From the IMG/VR virus record IMGVR_UViG_2563366906_000012: 8,053 nt of DNA; one strand, given 5' to 3'. Under the pieces are notes generated by a model. That model was not told where the DNA came from. It worked only from the letters and a program-made list of their open reading frames with translations, and searched no databases. Origin of the DNA: a virus. Lineage: Duplodnaviria; Heunggongvirae; Uroviricota; Caudoviricetes. Position 1 is the stretch's first letter. Each line of letters starts with the position of its first letter. Of the stretch, positions 1 to 8,053 are shown one piece after another. A program made the translations under genes and the position numbers.

Positions 1-981
1 TTATAACGTCACTCCGCCTTTTAGTGGATTCAGAGCGACGGCATTTTGCAGATAGTCAGGCGCAAGGTGCGCATAGGCCATCGTCTGCTGAATGCTCGCA
101 TGTCCCAGAATCTGTTGCAGTGCGATTATATTGCCCCCATTCATCATGAAATGGCTTGCGAATGTATGCCGCAGGATGTGGGTTGCCTGATTGGGTGGTA
201 TATCAGGTTTCACTCTGCGTAAAATCCCGCAAAATTTCTCATAATTAACTTTGAATAATTTGGCGCTGGCCTCCTCTTTAACTTTTTTCTCCAGTTCCTC
301 AGAAATCGGCACGGTTCGCTTTTTACCGTTTTTGGTTTTCAGGAAGGTAACCCTGCAATTTGTAATCTGTGCTGGTTTTAGCGTGGCAACTTCCGTCCAT
401 CTTCCTCCAGTGCTCAGACATAAAAGCGCGACAAGTAAGTCATCACCAGCCAAAACATTTAACAGTTTTTCGATTTCTGCTTTTTCCAGGAACGTCATTT
501 CAGGGTTGGCCTCCGCCAGTGGCGGCAGTCCGTGAATTGGGTGTTGCCCGGAAAATTCATCCAATTGAATTAATTTTGTGAACATGCCGGATAATCGGTA
601 CATGTCACGGTTTATCGTTGCGGCACTGATACCATCACGTAGTCGCATGGAACGATAATCCATCAAAGCCCTTTTGCTCATCCTGCTCACTGGTATATCA
701 CCTATGCCGCTGATGGTTTTGAGTAGATGATTAAACTCTTTTGTTCCATGCTCGTGGTTTTGCCCGTGATATTTCCACCAGATGTCCAGCAACTCACTCA
801 AAGTCCGGCGGTCTGCTCGCTGGCCTCCCCATTCTTTCTGACTGGCATTGGCGATTGTGTATCGCTCAAATGCTAGTGCCTCAGCTTTTCTTTCGAATTT
901 CCTGCGGATGCGTTTTCCGTCGCGACCGCGAGGTCTAATGTCCACTTCATAGCGACCATCATCGAGCTTCTTAATTGCCAT
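1..981 (-). CDS. int: Tyrosine integrase, phage P2 Int type
   Basis: Minus-strand ORF 1..1011 (336 aa). The C-terminal half carries the tyrosine-recombinase signature (HILRHTFASHFMMNGG ... LGHASIQQTMAYAHL, with the conserved R/H residues and catalytic Tyr region). The internal Met (MAIKKLDDGRYEVDIRPRG) at 981 is preceded by a strong SD (GGAGGG, rc of 989-994, 7-nt spacer), so 981 is the likelier start than 1011. The gene reads leftward toward the window edge, as expected if attP lies beyond position 1. Confidence 0.9.
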   Translation of the reverse strand: MAIKKLDDGRYEVDIRPRGRDGKRIRRKFERKAEALAFERYTIANASQKEWGGQRADRRTLSELLDIWWKYHGQNHEHGTKEFNHLLKTISGIGDIPVSRMSKRALMDYRSMRLRDGISAATINRDMYRLSGMFTKLIQLDEFSGQHPIHGLPPLAEANPEMTFLEKAEIEKLLNVLAGDDLLVALLCLSTGGRWTEVATLKPAQITNCRVTFLKTKNGKKRTVPISEELEKKVKEEASAKLFKVNYEKFCGILRRVKPDIPPNQATHILRHTFASHFMMNGGNIIALQQILGHASIQQTMAYAHLAPDYLQNAVALNPLKGGVTL

Positions 982-1050
982 AAGAAAGCCCTCCGGCGCT
1001 GTATTCACCATCTTGGTAGCAAATGGTGAAAATGTAATCTTTATATAGAG

Positions 1051-1344
1051 TTAGCCAATCCTTTTCGCGGAGTGGTTGGACTCTGTTGACTCTGGCCCAA
1101 TGTGCGCGAGAGCCGGTGCGATTTGTCCTGCGTCCGGCGCGGTTTTATCTGTCATAAGCCATAGAGCATATTTTTGGAATGTGGGATGCATAGTGATTTT
1201 TAGCAAAGCTGTGCCACCGGGTTCAAAGTTTCCTCCTTCATATTTTTTAAGTGTGCTTAGCGGTAACTCTATGATTTCACAGAATTTTGATTGGCTTAGC
1301 CCTTCAGCCTCACGCAAGGCCTTAATCTTTTCGCTTAATTTCAT
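1051..1344 (-). CDS. C: Immunity repressor, P2 C-like (HTH DNA-binding protein)
   Basis: 97-aa minus-strand ORF directly upstream of int in the same orientation. The N-terminus has an HTH-like segment (LSQSKFCEIIELPLSTLKKYEGG). The C-terminal segment (YALWLMTDKTAPDAGQIAPALAHIG) matches what I recall of the P2 C repressor family. Size (P2 C is about 99 aa) and position fit. Gene symbol is by analogy to P2. Confidence 0.8.
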   Translation of the reverse strand: MKLSEKIKALREAEGLSQSKFCEIIELPLSTLKKYEGGNFEPGGTALLKITMHPTFQKYALWLMTDKTAPDAGQIAPALAHIGPESTESNHSAKRIG

Positions 1345-3237: not shown

Positions 3238-3509
3238 GTATTCGTATTGAAATTGGCGAACGTTATGTCGTTACCAGTGACAGCTTTCAGTTTATTCTCC
3301 ACGAGAAAAAGAGAGCGGAAAGCGGTAAAAACGCCGGTCAGGAATGGCTGTCGGTGGTTGGTTATTACCCGAAATTAAGCCAGCTCGTTTCCGGCCTGAT
3401 GCATCACGATATTCTGACCGGAAGCGCAAAGTCTTTTGCTGATTTAAACGCGCAGGTTGAGCAACTCAGCAAGCGTTGTTCAGAGGCTTTTGGCTCATAT
3501 GGCCGTTAA
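3234..3509 (+). CDS. Hypothetical early protein (position of P2 orf83)
   Basis: 91-aa ORF, translationally coupled upstream, whose 3-prime end overlaps the gene A start by about 11 nt. No recognisable domain. Confidence 0.6.
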   Translation: MSIRIEIGERYVVTSDSFQFILHEKKRAESGKNAGQEWLSVVGYYPKLSQLVSGLMHHDILTGSAKSFADLNAQVEQLSKRCSEAFGSYGR

Positions 3510-5778
3510 AGCCTCCGGGCGTTTTGTCCCTCCGTCAGCATTTGCCGCAGGCACCGGTAAGGCGTTTACCGGTGCTTATGCATGGAACGCGCCACGCGAG
3601 GCCGTCGGGCGCGAAAGACCCCTTACACGTGACGAGATGCGTCAGGTGCAAGGTGTTTTATCCACGATTAACCGCCTGCCTTACTTTTTGCGCTCGCTGT
3701 TTACTTCACGCTATGACTACATCCGGCGCAATAAAAGCCCGGTGCACGGGTTTTATTTCCTCACATCCACTTTTCAGCGTCGTTTATGGCCGCGCATTGA
3801 GCGCGTTAATCAGCGCCATGAAATGAACACCAACGCGTCGTTGCTGTTTCTGGCAGAGCGTGACCACTATGCGCGCCTGCCGGGGATGAATGACAAGGAG
3901 CTGAAAAAATTTGCCGCCCGTATCTCATCGCAGCTTTTCATGATGTATGAGGAACTCAGCGATGCCTGGGTGGATGCGCATGGCGAGAAAGAATCGCTGT
4001 TTACGGATGAGGCGCAGGCTCACCTGTATGGTCATGTTGCTGGCGCTGCACGAGCTTTCAATATTTCCCCTCTCTACTGGAAAAAATACCGTAAAGGGCA
4101 GATGACCACGAGGCAGGCATATTCTGCCATTACCCGCCTGTTTAACGATGAGTGGTGGACTCATCAGCTTAAAGGCCAGCGTATGCGCTGGCATGAGGCG
4201 TTACTGATTGCTGTCGGGGAGGTCAATAAAGACCGTTCTCCTTATGCCAGTAAACATGCCATTCGTGATGTGCGTGCGCGCCGCCAGGCAAATCTGGAAT
4301 TTCTTAAATCGTGTGACCTTGAAAACAGGGAAACTGGCGAGCGCATCGACCTTATCAGTAAGGTGATGGGCAGTATTTCTAATCCAGAAATTCGCCGGAT
4401 GGAGCTGATGAACACCATTGCCGGTATTGAGCGTTACGCCGCCGCAGAGGGTGATGTGGGGATGTTTATCACGCTGACCGCGCCGTCAAAGTATCACCCG
4501 ACACGTCAGGTCGGAAAAGGCGAAAGTAAAACCGTTCAGCTTAATCACGGCTGGAACGATGAGGCATTTAATCCAAAGGATGCGCAGCGTTATCTCTGCC
4601 GTATCTGGAGCCTGATGCGCACGGCATTCAAGGATAATGATTTACAGGTCTACGGTTTGCGTGTCGTCGAGCCACACCACGACGGAACGCCGCACTGGCA
4701 TATGATGCTTTTTTGTAATCCACGCCAGCGCAACCAGATTATCGAAATCATGCGTCGCTATGCGCTCAAAGAGGATGGCGACGAAAGAGGAGCCGCGCGA
4801 AACCGTTTTCAGGCAAAACACCTTAACCGGGGCGGTGCTGCGGGATATATCGCGAAATACATTTCAAAAAACATCGACGGCTATGCACTGGATGGTCAGC
4901 TCGATAACGATACCGGCAGACCGCTGAAAGACACAGCGGCGGCTGTTACCGCATGGGCGTCAACGTGGCGCATCCCGCAATTTAAAACGGTTGGCCTGCC
5001 GACAATGGGGGCTTACCGTGAACTACGCAAATTGCCTCGCGGCGTCAGTATTGCTGATGAGTTTGACGAACGCGTCGAGGCTGCTCGCGCTGCTGCAGAC
5101 AGTGGTGATTTTGCGTTGTATATCAGCGCGCAGGGTGGGGCAAATGTCCCGCGCGATTGTCAGACTGTCAGGGTTGCCCGTAGCCCGTCGGATGACGTTA
5201 ACGAGTACGAGGAAGAAGTCGAGAGAGTGGTCGGCATTTACGCGCCGCATCTCGGCGCGCGTCATATTCATATCACCAGAACGACGGACTGGCGCATTGT
5301 GCCGAAAGTGCCGGTCGTTGAGCCTTTGACTTTAAAAAGCGGCATCGCCGCGCCTCGGAGTCCTGTCAATAACTGTGGAAAGCTCACCGGTGGTGATACT
5401 TCGTTACCGGCTCCCACACCTTCTGAGCACGCCGCAGCAGTGCTTAATCTGGTTGATGACGGTGTTATTGAATGGAATGACCCGGAGGTCGTGAGGGCGC
5501 TCAGGGGCGCATTAAAACAAGGTCTGAGAAGACCAAACCGTCAGCAAAGAAACGGAAGCCCGTTAAAACAGCATGAAATGGCACCATCGGCCAGACTGAC
5601 CCGGTCAGAACGAATGCAAATTACCCGTATCCGCGTTGACCTTGCTCAGAACGGTATCAGGCCGCAGCGATGGGAGCTTGAGGCGCTGGCGCGTGGAGCA
5701 ATTGTAAATTACGACGGGAAAAAATTCACGTATCCGGTCGCTGATGAGTGGCGGGGATTCTCAGCAGTAATGGAGTGA
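3499..5778 (+). CDS. A: Rolling-circle replication initiation endonuclease, P2 gene A / HUH Rep superfamily
   Basis: The tracked ORF is 3457..5778. The likely start is ATG 3499 (MAVKASGRF), or TTG 3490, giving about 759-762 aa against 761 aa for P2 A. It carries an HUH metal-binding motif (HWH, codons 4693-4701, in EPHHDGTPHWHMMLF) and a twin-tyrosine motif YIAKY (Tyr codons 4846-4848 and 4858-4860, in AGYIAKYISKN), like the phiX174 gpA active site. Confidence 0.9.
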   Translation: MAVKASGRFVPPSAFAAGTGKAFTGAYAWNAPREAVGRERPLTRDEMRQVQGVLSTINRLPYFLRSLFTSRYDYIRRNKSPVHGFYFLTSTFQRRLWPRIERVNQRHEMNTNASLLFLAERDHYARLPGMNDKELKKFAARISSQLFMMYEELSDAWVDAHGEKESLFTDEAQAHLYGHVAGAARAFNISPLYWKKYRKGQMTTRQAYSAITRLFNDEWWTHQLKGQRMRWHEALLIAVGEVNKDRSPYASKHAIRDVRARRQANLEFLKSCDLENRETGERIDLISKVMGSISNPEIRRMELMNTIAGIERYAAAEGDVGMFITLTAPSKYHPTRQVGKGESKTVQLNHGWNDEAFNPKDAQRYLCRIWSLMRTAFKDNDLQVYGLRVVEPHHDGTPHWHMMLFCNPRQRNQIIEIMRRYALKEDGDERGAARNRFQAKHLNRGGAAGYIAKYISKNIDGYALDGQLDNDTGRPLKDTAAAVTAWASTWRIPQFKTVGLPTMGAYRELRKLPRGVSIADEFDERVEAARAAADSGDFALYISAQGGANVPRDCQTVRVARSPSDDVNEYEEEVERVVGIYAPHLGARHIHITRTTDWRIVPKVPVVEPLTLKSGIAAPRSPVNNCGKLTGGDTSLPAPTPSEHAAAVLNLVDDGVIEWNDPEVVRALRGALKQGLRRPNRQQRNGSPLKQHEMAPSARLTRSERMQITRIRVDLAQNGIRPQRWELEALARGAIVNYDGKKFTYPVADEWRGFSAVME
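5350..5375 (+). other. Candidate replication origin / A-protein nick site inside gene A
   Basis: In P2 the origin lies inside the A coding sequence. The stretch GCGCCTCGGAGTCCTGTCAATAACTG at about 5350-5375 resembles my recollection of the P2 ori nick region. This is a recollection-based placement, not verified. Confidence 0.3.
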
Positions 5779-6043
5779 ACGTCGCCAGTTGCGAAAATTA
5801 TTTACAGGGGGCAGCGTTAAGCATCTAAAGATCTTGTTCTATGATTAGAATGTTTCCTCGTTGCACTCTCGTATAGTTATTTAATGGGAAGATGTACTCT
5901 ATATGTTGTGTTTTGGTGATAAATGAAGCCAAAGGAAGGAGATTTTGCTTGATTGATGGGCGCTCTTTGCTATACACCTTGTATTGAGAAGGAGAAGTAA
6001 TCAAGGATTAAGCTGGCTTTTGTCAAAAATCTGAAAAGCTTTT

Positions 6044-6073
6044 TTGACTGAATACGATAGCGAGTTGTACTAT
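6044..6073 (+). promoter_or_regulatory. Candidate sigma70 promoter for the cargo cassette (-35 TTGACT 6044-6049, 18-nt spacer, -10 TACTAT 6068-6073)
   Basis: By-eye hexamer match about 35 nt upstream of the first cargo ATG (6108). It sits in an AT-rich spacer and is immediately preceded by nested palindromes (GTCAAAAA ... TTTTTGAC around 6022-6049; AAAAGCTTTT at about 6033-6042). Confidence 0.4.
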
Positions 6074-6107
6074 TTGCGCCCTCAAAAGTAACCGGCGGCT
6101 GGGTAAA

Positions 6108-6488
6108 ATGGGGAAGCAAGGCAAAGGCAAAGGCAAAGGCAACAAAAATCAGGTTAAGGTTACGTGGGCTCAGGCGTGGCGGGATGTAATGATAAGAGCC
6201 ATGTCTAATGGTCAGTTGATACCTATTACCATCAGTATTATTTTAATGATTGCTGCATGGAGGTTACCAAAAACTGACTTGTCCAATTTAGCCTTCTCTA
6301 TTGTTGATGGCTTTAAGGAGCATTCCTTGGTTGGTTGGGCTATCTCGGTAATAGTGGGTTTGGCTTGGTCTGCACATGCGCGAATCATGAGGCGCTGTTT
6401 TAGTTCCGAGGCACAGAGAATCGGTAACGAGAAAACAAAGTATCAACAAAGACAGACCACTCAAGCCTTGGGTACAAGTGATAAATAG
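6108..6488 (+). CDS. Hypothetical small membrane protein with Gly-Lys repeat N-terminus (cargo gene 1)
   Basis: 126-aa ORF. The N-terminus MGKQGKGKGKGNKNQ is encoded by the in-frame hexanucleotide repeat GGCAAA. There are two hydrophobic helices (about residues 36-52, LIPITISIILMIAAW, and 73-90, LVGWAISVIVGLAWSA) and a basic/polar C-terminal tail. AT-rich relative to the phage backbone. No recognisable family. Confidence 0.6.
   Translation: MGKQGKGKGKGNKNQVKVTWAQAWRDVMIRAMSNGQLIPITISIILMIAAWRLPKTDLSNLAFSIVDGFKEHSLVGWAISVIVGLAWSAHARIMRRCFSSEAQRIGNEKTKYQQRQTTQALGTSDK
6114..6143 (+). repeat. In-frame hexanucleotide tandem repeat (GGCAAA x3 perfect, with flanking degenerate copies) encoding (GK)n
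   Basis: Direct reading: aag caa ggc aaa ggc aaa ggc aaa ggc aac. The perfect copies span 6120-6137. Confidence 0.8.
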
Positions 6489-6508
6489 TTGTTTATTTAG
6501 GAGTTATT

Positions 6509-7066
6509 ATGCTGACAGTGCTGTTTTATGTGCTGTTGGGTTTAGGCGCAGCACACTTCATTTACGAGCGAATCATTTTGCCGTCCATCCGACTTCATTA
6601 TAGAAACCAATTGTTTGCGCTTCGTGATGTCGCTAGGAGGAAAATCATTGATGGAGGTTCCGATACTTCCATGCAAGCGGCAACACTTGTGCATGACTCA
6701 TTGAATAACGCTATCAATAGATTGCATTTACTCACGTTGCCAAACAAATTTCGTGCTCAAAAGCGTATGGCAGAAAACCATGCAATAAGGCAGAAAATTC
6801 GGCGTGAGATAGATGTTTTCAAACGCTGTGATGATAGAGAAGTTGTTGATGTACTGTTTAAATCCGGTCGGATACTTGAAAATGTACTGTTATTCAATAG
6901 CTTAATGTTATTGCTTTACATGTTTCCATTTGTCCTTGCTGTATGGTTCTGTGTTAGGGTCATAAAGACAGCAAGTAGTTTAGTACAGTGGGTCAAAGGA
7001 AGAGATTTAGAGGAAGCTATAATGCTGCTTCCTGATACTCAGGTTGAAAAGGTTGTATACGCATAA
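6509..7066 (+). CDS. Hypothetical membrane protein, N- and C-terminal hydrophobic helices flanking a charged central domain (cargo gene 2)
   Basis: 185-aa ORF with a strong SD (AGGAG 6499-6503, 5-nt spacer). Hydrophobic segments at about residues 2-24 (LTVLFYVLLGLGAAHFIY) and 126-152 (VLLFNSLMLLLYMFPFVLAVWFCVRVI), with a roughly 100-residue Arg/Lys/Asp-rich region between. It starts 20 nt after cargo gene 1, so the two are probably an operon. No recognisable family. Confidence 0.65.
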   Translation: MLTVLFYVLLGLGAAHFIYERIILPSIRLHYRNQLFALRDVARRKIIDGGSDTSMQAATLVHDSLNNAINRLHLLTLPNKFRAQKRMAENHAIRQKIRREIDVFKRCDDREVVDVLFKSGRILENVLLFNSLMLLLYMFPFVLAVWFCVRVIKTASSLVQWVKGRDLEEAIMLLPDTQVEKVVYA

Positions 7067-7134
7067 AAATCACCCCTTAGGGGGTAATGCCGATCAGTTA
7101 AGGATCAGTTGACCGATCCAGTGGCTGTGTAAGA

Positions 7135-7168
7135 ATCCGGAAACGCTCACTCGTTTCCGGATTTTTTT
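7135..7168 (+). terminator. Strong intrinsic-terminator-like hairpin inside the IS left end, immediately before the transposase ATG
   Basis: Perfect 11-bp stem ATCCGGAAACG (7135-7145) / CGTTTCCGGAT (7152-7162), 6-nt loop, followed by TTTTTT (7163-7168) and then ATG at 7169. Confidence 0.6.
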
Positions 7169-8053
7169 ATGCACATTGGACAGGCCCTTGATTTGGTATC
7201 CCGTTACGATTCTCTGCGTAACCCACTGACTTCTCTGGGGGATTACCTCGACCCCGAACTCATCTCTCGTTGCCTTGCCGAATCAGGTACTGTAACGCTA
7301 CACAAGCGCCGTCTTCCCCTCGAAATGATGGTCTGGTGTATTGTTGGCATGGCGCTTGAGCGTAAAGAACCTCTTCACCAGATTGTGAATCGCCTGGACA
7401 TCATGCTGCCGGGCAATCGCCCCTTCGTTGCCCCCAGTGCCGTTATTCAGGCCCGCCAGCGCCTGGGAAGTGAGGCTGTCCGCCGCGTGTTCACGAAAAC
7501 AGCGCAGCTCTGGCATAACGCCACGCCGCATCCGCAATGGTGCGGCCTGACCCTGCTGGCCATCGATGGTGTGTTCTGGCGCACACCGGATACACCAGAG
7601 AACGATGCAGCCTTCCCCCGCCAGACACATGCCGGGAACCCGGCGCTCTACCCGCAGGTCAAAATGGTCTGCCAGATGGAACTGACCAGCCATCTGCTGA
7701 CGGCTGCAGCCTTCGGCACGATGAAGAACAGCGAAAATGAGCTTGCTGAGCAACTTATAGAACAAACCGGCGATAACACTCTGACGTTAATGGACAAAGG
7801 TTATTACTCACTGGGACTGTTAAATGCCTGGAGCCTGGCGGGAGAACACCGCCACTGGATGATCCCTCTCAGAAAGGGAGCGCAATATGAAGAGATCAGA
7901 AAACTGGGTAAAGGCGATCATCTGGTGAAGCTGAAAACCAGCCCGCAGGCACGAAAAAAGTGGCCGGGACTGGGAAATGAGGTGACAGCCCGCCTGCTGA
8001 CCGTGACGCGCAAAGGAAAAGTCTGCCATCTGCTGACGTCGATGACGGACGCC
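7169..8053 (+). CDS. insG: IS4 transposase (DDE family), N-terminal 295 codons; truncated by the window end
   Basis: Hand translation from ATG 7169 gives an uninterrupted reading frame to the window end ([86 protein letters not shown] ... [15 protein letters not shown] ... [16 protein letters not shown] ...), which I recognise as IS4 InsG. It is absent from the supplied ORF track because there is no stop within the window. Confidence 0.9.

Follow-up and report, generated by a model that had tools for sequence, protein, structure and literature searches.

Probable insertion of IS4 into the apex of a terminator within a P2_AC1-type 2TM-1TM-TIR defence locus of a P2-like prophage

Eighteen base pairs after the stop codon of the second cargo gene of a P2-like prophage, the sequence passes abruptly into an IS4 element, which raises the question of how the element came to lie at this very position and what its arrival meant for the genes around it. 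We analyzed a stretch of 8,053 nucleotides (IMG/VR record IMGVR_UViG_2563366906_000012; hereafter "the window"), the content of which is the early region of a P2-like prophage. The part that precedes the cargo is laid out as follows:

Positions 1-1011, minus strand: integrase
Positions 1051-1344, minus strand: repressor
After the repressor: the cox-to-gpA block, with gpA at 3499-5778

The gpA gene is located directly 5' of the cargo, and throughout the early region the window is collinear with P2-like prophages. Compared to one of these (L001), the window shows a single different base, at position 3603 in gpA. A search against Rfam at E <= 1 gave zero matches across the window. The following features were assigned to the cargo:

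Positions 6044..6073, plus strand: candidate promoter of the two-gene unit (TTGACT-18-TACTAT), 5' of the 2TM gene (consensus scan, weak)
Positions 6108..6488, plus strand: 2TM gene, 126 aa, first in the P2_AC1-type 2TM-1TM-TIR defence locus (PADLOC 2TM-TIR PDLC02978, E 7e-58, full length)
Positions 6509..7066, plus strand: 1TM gene, 185 aa, second in the locus, with a TAA stop at 7064-7066 (PADLOC 1TM-TIR PDLC02977, E 3e-75, full length)

The 2TM and 1TM genes are adjacent and co-oriented, as the P2_AC1-type system requires; the promoter-like site before them matches the consensus at 9 of 12 positions, but such sites turn up at least as often in shuffled sequences, and it is a candidate by its position only. 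The DNA of the 2TM gene is identical to gp04 of phage P2_AC1, the 1TM protein shows 100% identity to gp03 of the same phage, and the cargo region of L001 is 100% identical to that of P2_AC1 (NC_070903). The window thus has in common with P2_AC1 and L001 the 2TM gene, the 1TM gene, their spacing and the upstream gpA, save for one gpA base; the position, judged from the gpA side, is probably that of the gpA-gpQ hotspot, the portal side being beyond the window. Rousset et al. (2022; PMC9122126) showed that the AC1 hotspot carries three genes which confer protection against lambda, LF82_P8 and P2; these authors treat the three genes as one system and propose signalling from the TIR protein to the membrane proteins. 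Judged by sequence, the window cargo is two thirds of this known P2_AC1 2TM-1TM-TIR defence locus.

The order of genes in all uninterrupted relatives is gpA, 2TM, 1TM, a terminator, TIR, (a 94-aa ORF), a 305-aa gene, cos and the portal gene. Here the TIR gene starts 240 nt past the 1TM stop and encodes a 315-aa TIR_2 protein which matches PADLOC TIR-TM (E 3e-118). In the window, on the other hand, the 1TM gene is directly followed by IS4, which sits in the terminator that in relatives parts 1TM from TIR, and the sequence up to position 8053 contains no TIR gene. The preliminary description of this DNA had considered that the insertion may have removed or displaced further cargo genes, which agrees with the presence of the 315-aa TIR and 305-aa proteins between this point and cos/portal in every uninterrupted relative. 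It had also placed IS4 downstream of the cargo operon; the element is indeed 3' of two genes, but it is not outside the defence locus, since the published definition puts the element within it, after the second gene and before the third.

To define the boundary of the element, we aligned five independent IS4 junctions. These are invariant from T7085 (TAATGCCGATCAGTTAAGG) on, while their upstream flanks are unrelated; the first base of IS4 is thus 7085 (TAATGCCGATCAG...) and the junction falls between 7084 and 7085, an exact value for the start that had previously been put at about 7085. In other genomes, matches extend to 7052-7065, but a boundary in this interval was rejected as target-site similarity because both the five-junction alignment and complete copies place the start of IS4 at 7085. 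The element carries the following features:

Positions 7085..8053, plus strand: IS4, left 969 bp of an expected 1426 bp, running off the window
Positions 7085..7102, plus strand: left terminal inverted repeat of IS4 (TAATGCCGATCAGTTAAG), unvarying in all aligned copies
Positions 7109..7136, plus strand: promoter-like site in IS4 (TTGACC-16-AAGAAT with TG), 5' of the leader hairpin (consensus scan only)
Positions 7132..7168, plus strand: putative terminator-like IS4 leader hairpin with U-run (by folding)
Positions 7169..8053, plus strand: 5' part of the IS4 transposase gene (295 codons), with the frame still open where the window ends

Positions 7085-8053 show 98-99.4% identity to complete 1426-bp IS4 copies. 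Four complete copies measure 1426 bp each and are flanked by duplications of 12-13 bp; on the right, complete copies terminate with ...CTTAACTGACTGGCATTA. The transposase matches Nterm_IS4 (E 6e-32), DDE_Tnp_1 (E 5e-16) and NCBIfam transpos_IS4_1 (209 bits; cutoff 115), and its ATG, at offset 84 from the IS end, is the start that is also annotated in RefSeq copies. The C-terminal third of the protein, with the final E and the YREK motif, is beyond the window. Overall, the left end, the leader hairpin and the N-terminal 295 aa correspond to E. coli IS4 (IS4 family, IS4 subgroup; 1426 bp; 11-13-bp duplication) at the identity given above, and the element itself shows no difference from it; what differs is that 969 of 1426 bp are visible and that a set of 5,426 complete E. 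coli genomes does not contain this insertion site.

The 18 nt between the 1TM stop and IS4 are positions 7067-7084 (aaatcaccccttaggggg). The preliminary description gave the length of this spacer and its place after the TAA at 7064-7066 correctly, but the string that it quoted has 19 letters, as it includes the last A of the stop codon. It had also pointed out a mini-hairpin at 7073-7084, and we do find CCCC at 7073-7076 and GGGGG at 7080-7084. Comparison with uninterrupted P2-like prophages, which had been suggested as a check, revealed an intact terminator at the insertion point, of which this hairpin is half. In uninterrupted relatives, including phage P2_AC1, the sequence at the site is ...GCATAAAAATCACCCCTTAGGGGGTGATTTTTTTACATG, arranged as AAAAATCACCCC-TTA-GGGGGTGATTTTTTT with a 12-bp stem which overlaps the 1TM stop codon. 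Folding of the intact form gives a 12-bp stem followed by U7 on the plus strand (-17.8 kcal/mol, z -4.7) and -21.4 kcal/mol (z -6.1) on the minus strand; on this modelling, the structure is a bidirectional intrinsic (rho-independent) terminator. All 22 uninterrupted AC1-type loci that we fetched carry the intact terminator; in one of them the T-run is shorter by one base. Two relatives with only approx. 85% identity in the 1TM protein retain it with TTCG as the loop.

What the window retains of this structure, and what it has lost, is as follows:

Positions 7065..7084: surviving part of the terminator, comprising the left arm AAAAATCACCCC (7065-7076), the TTA loop and the Gs with which the right arm begins
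Presumably displaced beyond IS4: what is left of the right arm, together with the T-tract (TGATTTTTTT)

The gene has thus been parted from the right arm and from the T-tract, in agreement with the earlier idea that the native 3' end of the cassette had been displaced. On the plus strand, the remnant alone forms about 5 pairs (-9.6 kcal/mol, z -0.6), which is no better than shuffled sequences, and it has no U-tract; the plus strand of the window thus has at this point no structure with the features of an intrinsic terminator, and the mini-hairpin is meaningful only as part of the terminator that is intact in relatives. On the plus strand, neither the native terminator nor the leader hairpin of IS4 was picked up by a consensus terminator scan, probably because A-T and G-T extension of the stem consumes the T-run. 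The strength of terminators was therefore judged by folding against shuffled sequences, in place of the consensus scan.

The location of IS4 within a terminator leads to the question of whether the element prefers targets of this kind. IS4 has been described to show strong specificity in both arms of the target and to generate 10-13-bp repeats (PMC2266710). We collected 44 left ends from a scan of species-representative genomes together with four complete E. coli copies, which yielded 43 unique left flanks. A was found at positions -20 to -16 in 25-36 of 43 flanks (30-36 at -20 to -17), positions -14 to -9 were C-rich, and G was found at -4 in 34 and at -1 in 36 of the 43. An A-run combined with a palindromic end was present in 19/43 flanks, as compared to 1.4% of random positions in the same loci. 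Moreover, 12 distinct IS4 copies are flanked by perfect 11-13-bp duplications, and about 7 of these targets are strong hairpins with A- and T-runs. Three of the four copies examined first are located between convergent or tandem genes (fumC/fumB, zapB/rraA and mdoH/yceK), exactly at the tip of a terminator hairpin, with A- and T-runs flanking and with 12-13-bp duplications. The preferred target of IS4 is a quasi-palindrome between an A-run and a T-run, which resembles a rho-independent terminator.

The window site is of the same type, with an A-run, a quasi-palindrome and a T-run. It shares with the copies at fumC/fumB, zapB/rraA and mdoH/yceK the order A-run, stem, duplicated tip, IS4, duplicated tip, stem and T-run; these copies differ from it in that they lie between chromosomal housekeeping genes and in that their residual junction hairpins are weaker than those predicted here. 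Mayaux et al., in 1984, reportedly found IS4 in the pheST attenuator terminator and derived a target consensus AAA-N20-TTT, and the window site fits this consensus, too. Placement of this kind has parallels among other elements. Tn7 inserts downstream of glmS, sparing genes. Tn7, IS1397 and ISRm22 resemble IS4 in that extragenic structured DNA at gene ends is used and gene disruption is avoided, and they differ from it in their transposases and recognition modes. For REP-targeting IS such as IS1397 and ISRm22, insertion in extragenic structured DNA at gene ends has been described (PMC1525189).

We further derived a position matrix from the 43 flanks without the window site and scored it on both arms of two intact 20.5-kb loci. 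The equivalent of the window junction between 7084 and 7085, with a target-site duplication of 12, ranked 1st among 20,506 positions in each of the two loci; the top score was 30.0 bits, as compared to a mean of -15.6 (sd 8.1). The left flank in the window scored 14.2 bits, as compared to a median of 9.7 in the training set. Given this target preference, the location of the insertion is expected to the base and is not accidental. Overall, we consider it highly probable that the window holds a canonical IS4 in the apex of the 2TM-1TM terminator of a P2_AC1-type locus in the gpA-gpQ hotspot of a P2-like prophage, where it would have arrived by transposition into the best terminator-type site of the region.

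As IS copies often break or mis-join short-read assemblies, and as related draft contigs end at the junction, one might ask whether the end of a prophage contig was chimerically joined to a collapsed IS4 repeat. The draft assembly GCA_958310045.1 argues strongly against such an artefact: its independent contig (L068) shows the identical junction and breaks off after 64 nt of IS4, with a single mismatch to the window over 7,148 bases. In addition, a join at the exact terminal nucleotide of IS4 and at the best predicted target is unlike a random mis-join, and we regard an artefact as extremely unlikely. Another draft contig, from GCA_012720935.1, represents a second prophage sub-lineage, with 11 differences, and stops 2 nt short of the junction; this break is compatible with a second, independent insertion.

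The distribution of the interrupted form was assessed in several collections. Among 5,426 complete E. coli genomes, 14 have an AC1-type junction, in each case uninterrupted; megablast of positions 6000-8053 against these 5,426 genomes found no record joining the cargo to IS4. The exact left junction (37 nt) had 0 matches in species-representative genomes, IMG/VR and metagenome contigs. An exact look-up of the 185-aa protein, covering the 24 blocks with the longest contigs, gave uninterrupted loci only, and the rarer gpA variant led to draft contigs whose ends lie at the IS or inside it.

The right side of the element can be predicted from complete IS4 copies, in which the duplications (11-13 bp) abut TAATGCC. 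The left copy of the repeat is assigned as follows:

Positions 7073..7084: predicted 12-bp target-site duplication CCCCTTAGGGGG, left copy (from the matrix and by analogy with complete copies)

A simple insertion would have duplicated CCCCTTAGGGGG and would show, at its right side, ...GGCATTA, CCCCTTAGGGGG and then TGATTTTTTTACATGACTTTTG...; the right junction would thus join ...CTGGCATTA to CCCCTTAGGGGGTGATTTTTTT, and the TIR gene would still be located downstream. The predicted right junction had 0 matches in metagenome contigs and IMG/VR, and the right side was seen in none of the collections searched. This is also what would be expected if IS4 marked the breakpoint of a rearrangement, i.e., if later recombination with another IS4 copy or an adjacent deletion had taken out or moved the TIR and 305-aa genes, and perhaps the late genes as well, in which case the prophage would be truncated and IS4 would have no matching direct repeat. 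Many E. coli genomes carry multiple IS4 copies, with up to 32 matching places per genome, and 2 of the 14 distinct complete copies, both from Shigella flexneri (L030 and L046), lack a duplication and have non-matching flanks. The remaining 12 of the 14 keep their duplication, and the left junction is the single best two-armed target in 20.5 kb and is in the exact predicted register, as in a primary insertion. These observations bear on the first event and not on a later one. We find a rearrangement unlikely and retain the reading of a simple insertion into the terminator.

A further question is what such an insertion would change in the expression of the genes around it; the effects on transcription set out here are inferred from folding and motif scans. 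The transcripts of the 2TM-1TM unit, which formerly would have ended at about 7095, would now run to the IS4 leader terminator near 7168, approx. 100 nt past the stop codon. As the remnant has no U-tract, the leader hairpin represents the next plausible stop for these transcripts, and the preliminary description had likewise named the hairpin inside the IS as the only obvious one. Folding supports a terminator-like structure there, the next one on the plus strand, with a stem at 7132-7145 / 7152-7165 and a T-run to 7168 (-24.8 kcal/mol, z -6.5); 0 of 200 shuffled sequences were as good. The hairpin ends one base 5' of the transposase ATG and is conserved in all aligned IS4 copies, and it may also shield the transposase gene from read-through.

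Transcription leaving IS4 would be stopped at both junctions. At the left junction, the minus strand forms an 8-pair hairpin followed by T5, and the predicted right junction (...GGCATTA joined to CCCCTTAGGGGGTGATTTTTTT) gives, on folding, a stem of 8 bp with U7 after it. A general rule by which every IS4 insertion would create outward-facing half-terminators on its two sides was rejected, as other IS4 junctions form weak hairpins only (z near 0). The 8-pair hairpins at this site can be explained by the IS4 ends (ATTA/TAAT), which by chance resemble bases of the native stem (ATCA/TGAT).

The consequences for the TIR gene depend on whether it forms a unit with the two membrane-protein genes. In two IMG/VR contigs (L073 and L074), the 2TM-1TM pair, with the same terminator, is located directly before the portal gene and the TIR gene is absent, while in a third contig (L076) a TIR gene, 74% identical, stands alone between gpA and the portal gene. 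Approximately 45 nt before the TIR start are conserved between these locus types and contain a promoter-like TTGACG-N18-TTTAAT, which the scan did not call; its -10-like hexamer is imperfect, with T in place of A at position 2. The separate occurrence of the two parts, the motif upstream of TIR and the strong terminator between them point to two transcription units, and possibly to two separable modules, one consisting of the 2TM-1TM pair and one of the TIR gene. IS4 appears to sit at the boundary of these modules, and no coding sequence is broken.

These data also bear on the possibility that the insertion was selected, either as polar on the TIR gene or as uncoupling it from the TM genes, and that it silenced a costly or self-toxic TIR defence. 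Such a view would fit the treatment of the three AC1 genes as one system by Rousset et al. (2022), and the interrupted form is rare, with 14/14 complete genomes that have the locus carrying it uninterrupted. A parallel exists in the work of Wang et al. (2024; PMC11350192), where plasmid-borne TIR-V systems were inactivated by IS1 or IS4 when a toxic phage trigger was co-expressed. Against selection, every intact locus already has a terminator with a 12-bp stem between the TM pair and TIR; a conserved motif precedes the TIR gene, which stands alone in L076, as the TM pair does in L073 and L074; and the intrinsic target preference of IS4 explains its position without selection. We therefore regard it as improbable that selection placed IS4 here.

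We also consider it improbable that IS4 acts as a natural switch or uncoupler in the AC1 locus, with the split terminator silencing or re-wiring the TIR arm while 2TM-1TM is still expressed. If this were true, the possibly recurrent break represented by GCA_012720935.1 would indicate repeated selection against a costly TIR effector, and "2TM-1TM-TIR" would be two independent neighbouring defence modules. Under the favored reading, i.e., insertion of IS4 into its preferred target, the event was probably nearly neutral for both modules, since no coding sequence is broken, the modules occur separately and TIR has a conserved upstream motif of its own.

A known element, a target of a known kind and a known defence system are combined here, each of them already described, and none of our results changes what is known of IS4 or of TIR defence. 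For annotation, the insertion explains a locus that looks truncated; tools that require three adjacent genes may miss the system. The matrix from 43 sites predicts the insertion point to the base and could help to predict or interpret other IS4 insertions. Moreover, the locus offers a natural experiment, as IS-carrying and IS-free lysogens may be separated, in the rest of the 7 kb compared, by no more than one base, and a comparison of such lysogens would bear on whether the AC1 TIR gene needs linkage to the two membrane-protein genes. The separate occurrence of the TM pair and of the TIR gene in P2-like phages likewise bears on whether these genes represent one defence system or two.

Another prophage contig may record a second, independent insertion in the intrinsic terminator in which IS4 sits in the window. 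This contig (DABCXD010000021.1 of GCA_012720935.1; locus L069) stops 2 nt short of the IS4 junction position, at locus end 9584, and its prophage, with 11 differences from the window, clusters with the uninterrupted loci L061 and L065. An IS21-type element, with an rve transposase and IstB, was observed in another AC1-type prophage (CP137765.1, L008:13820-16122), where it is flanked by the 305-aa cargo gene and by the portal gene; the hotspot has thus acquired a different IS elsewhere.

Exact 40-nt left ends of IS4 were also found, in multiple copies and mostly at contig ends, beyond Escherichia and Shigella (within loci L016-L057). The carriers include Kosakonia oryziphila REICA_142, a Scandinavium MAG and Photorhabdus khanii, and the left ends are flanked by an A-run plus palindrome, as at other IS4 sites. 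An IS4 left end was also present on a 265-nt contig of Methylobacterium mesophilicum NBRC 15688 (L047), with a flank identical to that of an IS4 copy in the E. coli chromosome (L021, L031); this contig is probably E. coli contamination of the M. mesophilicum assembly. Two of the complete IS4 copies, L030 and L046 of Shigella flexneri SFBU1023, have flanks that do not match and are without target duplication, which indicates recombination between IS4 copies in this genome.

In P2-like prophages, the same gpA-plus-cargo block is combined with no fewer than three distinct integrases and attachment sites (left flanks L006-L015 and L060-L067); the attachment sites of these prophages adjoin cpxP, yegS/yegR and a radical-SAM gene. 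Base 1 of record NZ_CP133923.1 is the start of the prophage gpA gene, and in three other complete chromosomes (NZ_CP190018.1, NZ_CM169482.1 and NZ_AP045736.1) the cargo lies at the same offset as in that record, 2502. All four records seem to have been rotated onto the phage replication gene rather than onto dnaA.

Within the 2TM gene, a perfect AAGGCA hexanucleotide repeat of 4.2 copies (window 6118-6142) encodes GKGKGKG near the start of the protein, in its N-terminus. The length of the 2TM protein in related loci is 124, 126, 128 or 130 aa, and the repeat therefore varies by in-frame 6-nt steps.

Two further genes close the cargo on the side of cos:

L001:5509-6426, 305-aa cargo gene (uninterrupted AC1-type prophage)
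L006:12212-12496, 94-aa cargo gene

The 305-aa protein had no match in Pfam, PADLOC or NCBIfam, and the 94-aa protein none in Pfam or PADLOC; both genes fall outside the three PADLOC models.

The TM pair and the TIR gene were also found apart, and the "2TM-1TM-TIR" system, published as a set of three genes, may consist of two separable modules. In two IMG/VR P2-like contigs, the 2TM-1TM pair and its terminator immediately precede the portal gene, without any TIR gene, and a third IMG/VR contig carries a TIR gene alone. The relevant features are as follows:

L073:3652-4600 and L074:3653-4600, TIR-less 2TM-1TM pair
L076:1515-6452, stretch with a lone TIR gene, 74% identical, in the interval between gpA and the portal gene
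L001:3755-3810 and L076:3950-4003, conserved stretch upstream of TIR

Between the AC1-type locus and the TIR-only locus, conservation covers approx. 45 nt 5' of the TIR start codon. This stretch contains TTGACG or TTGATG, followed after 17-18 nt by TTTAAT or TTCAAT, a motif that may represent a promoter belonging to the TIR gene itself.
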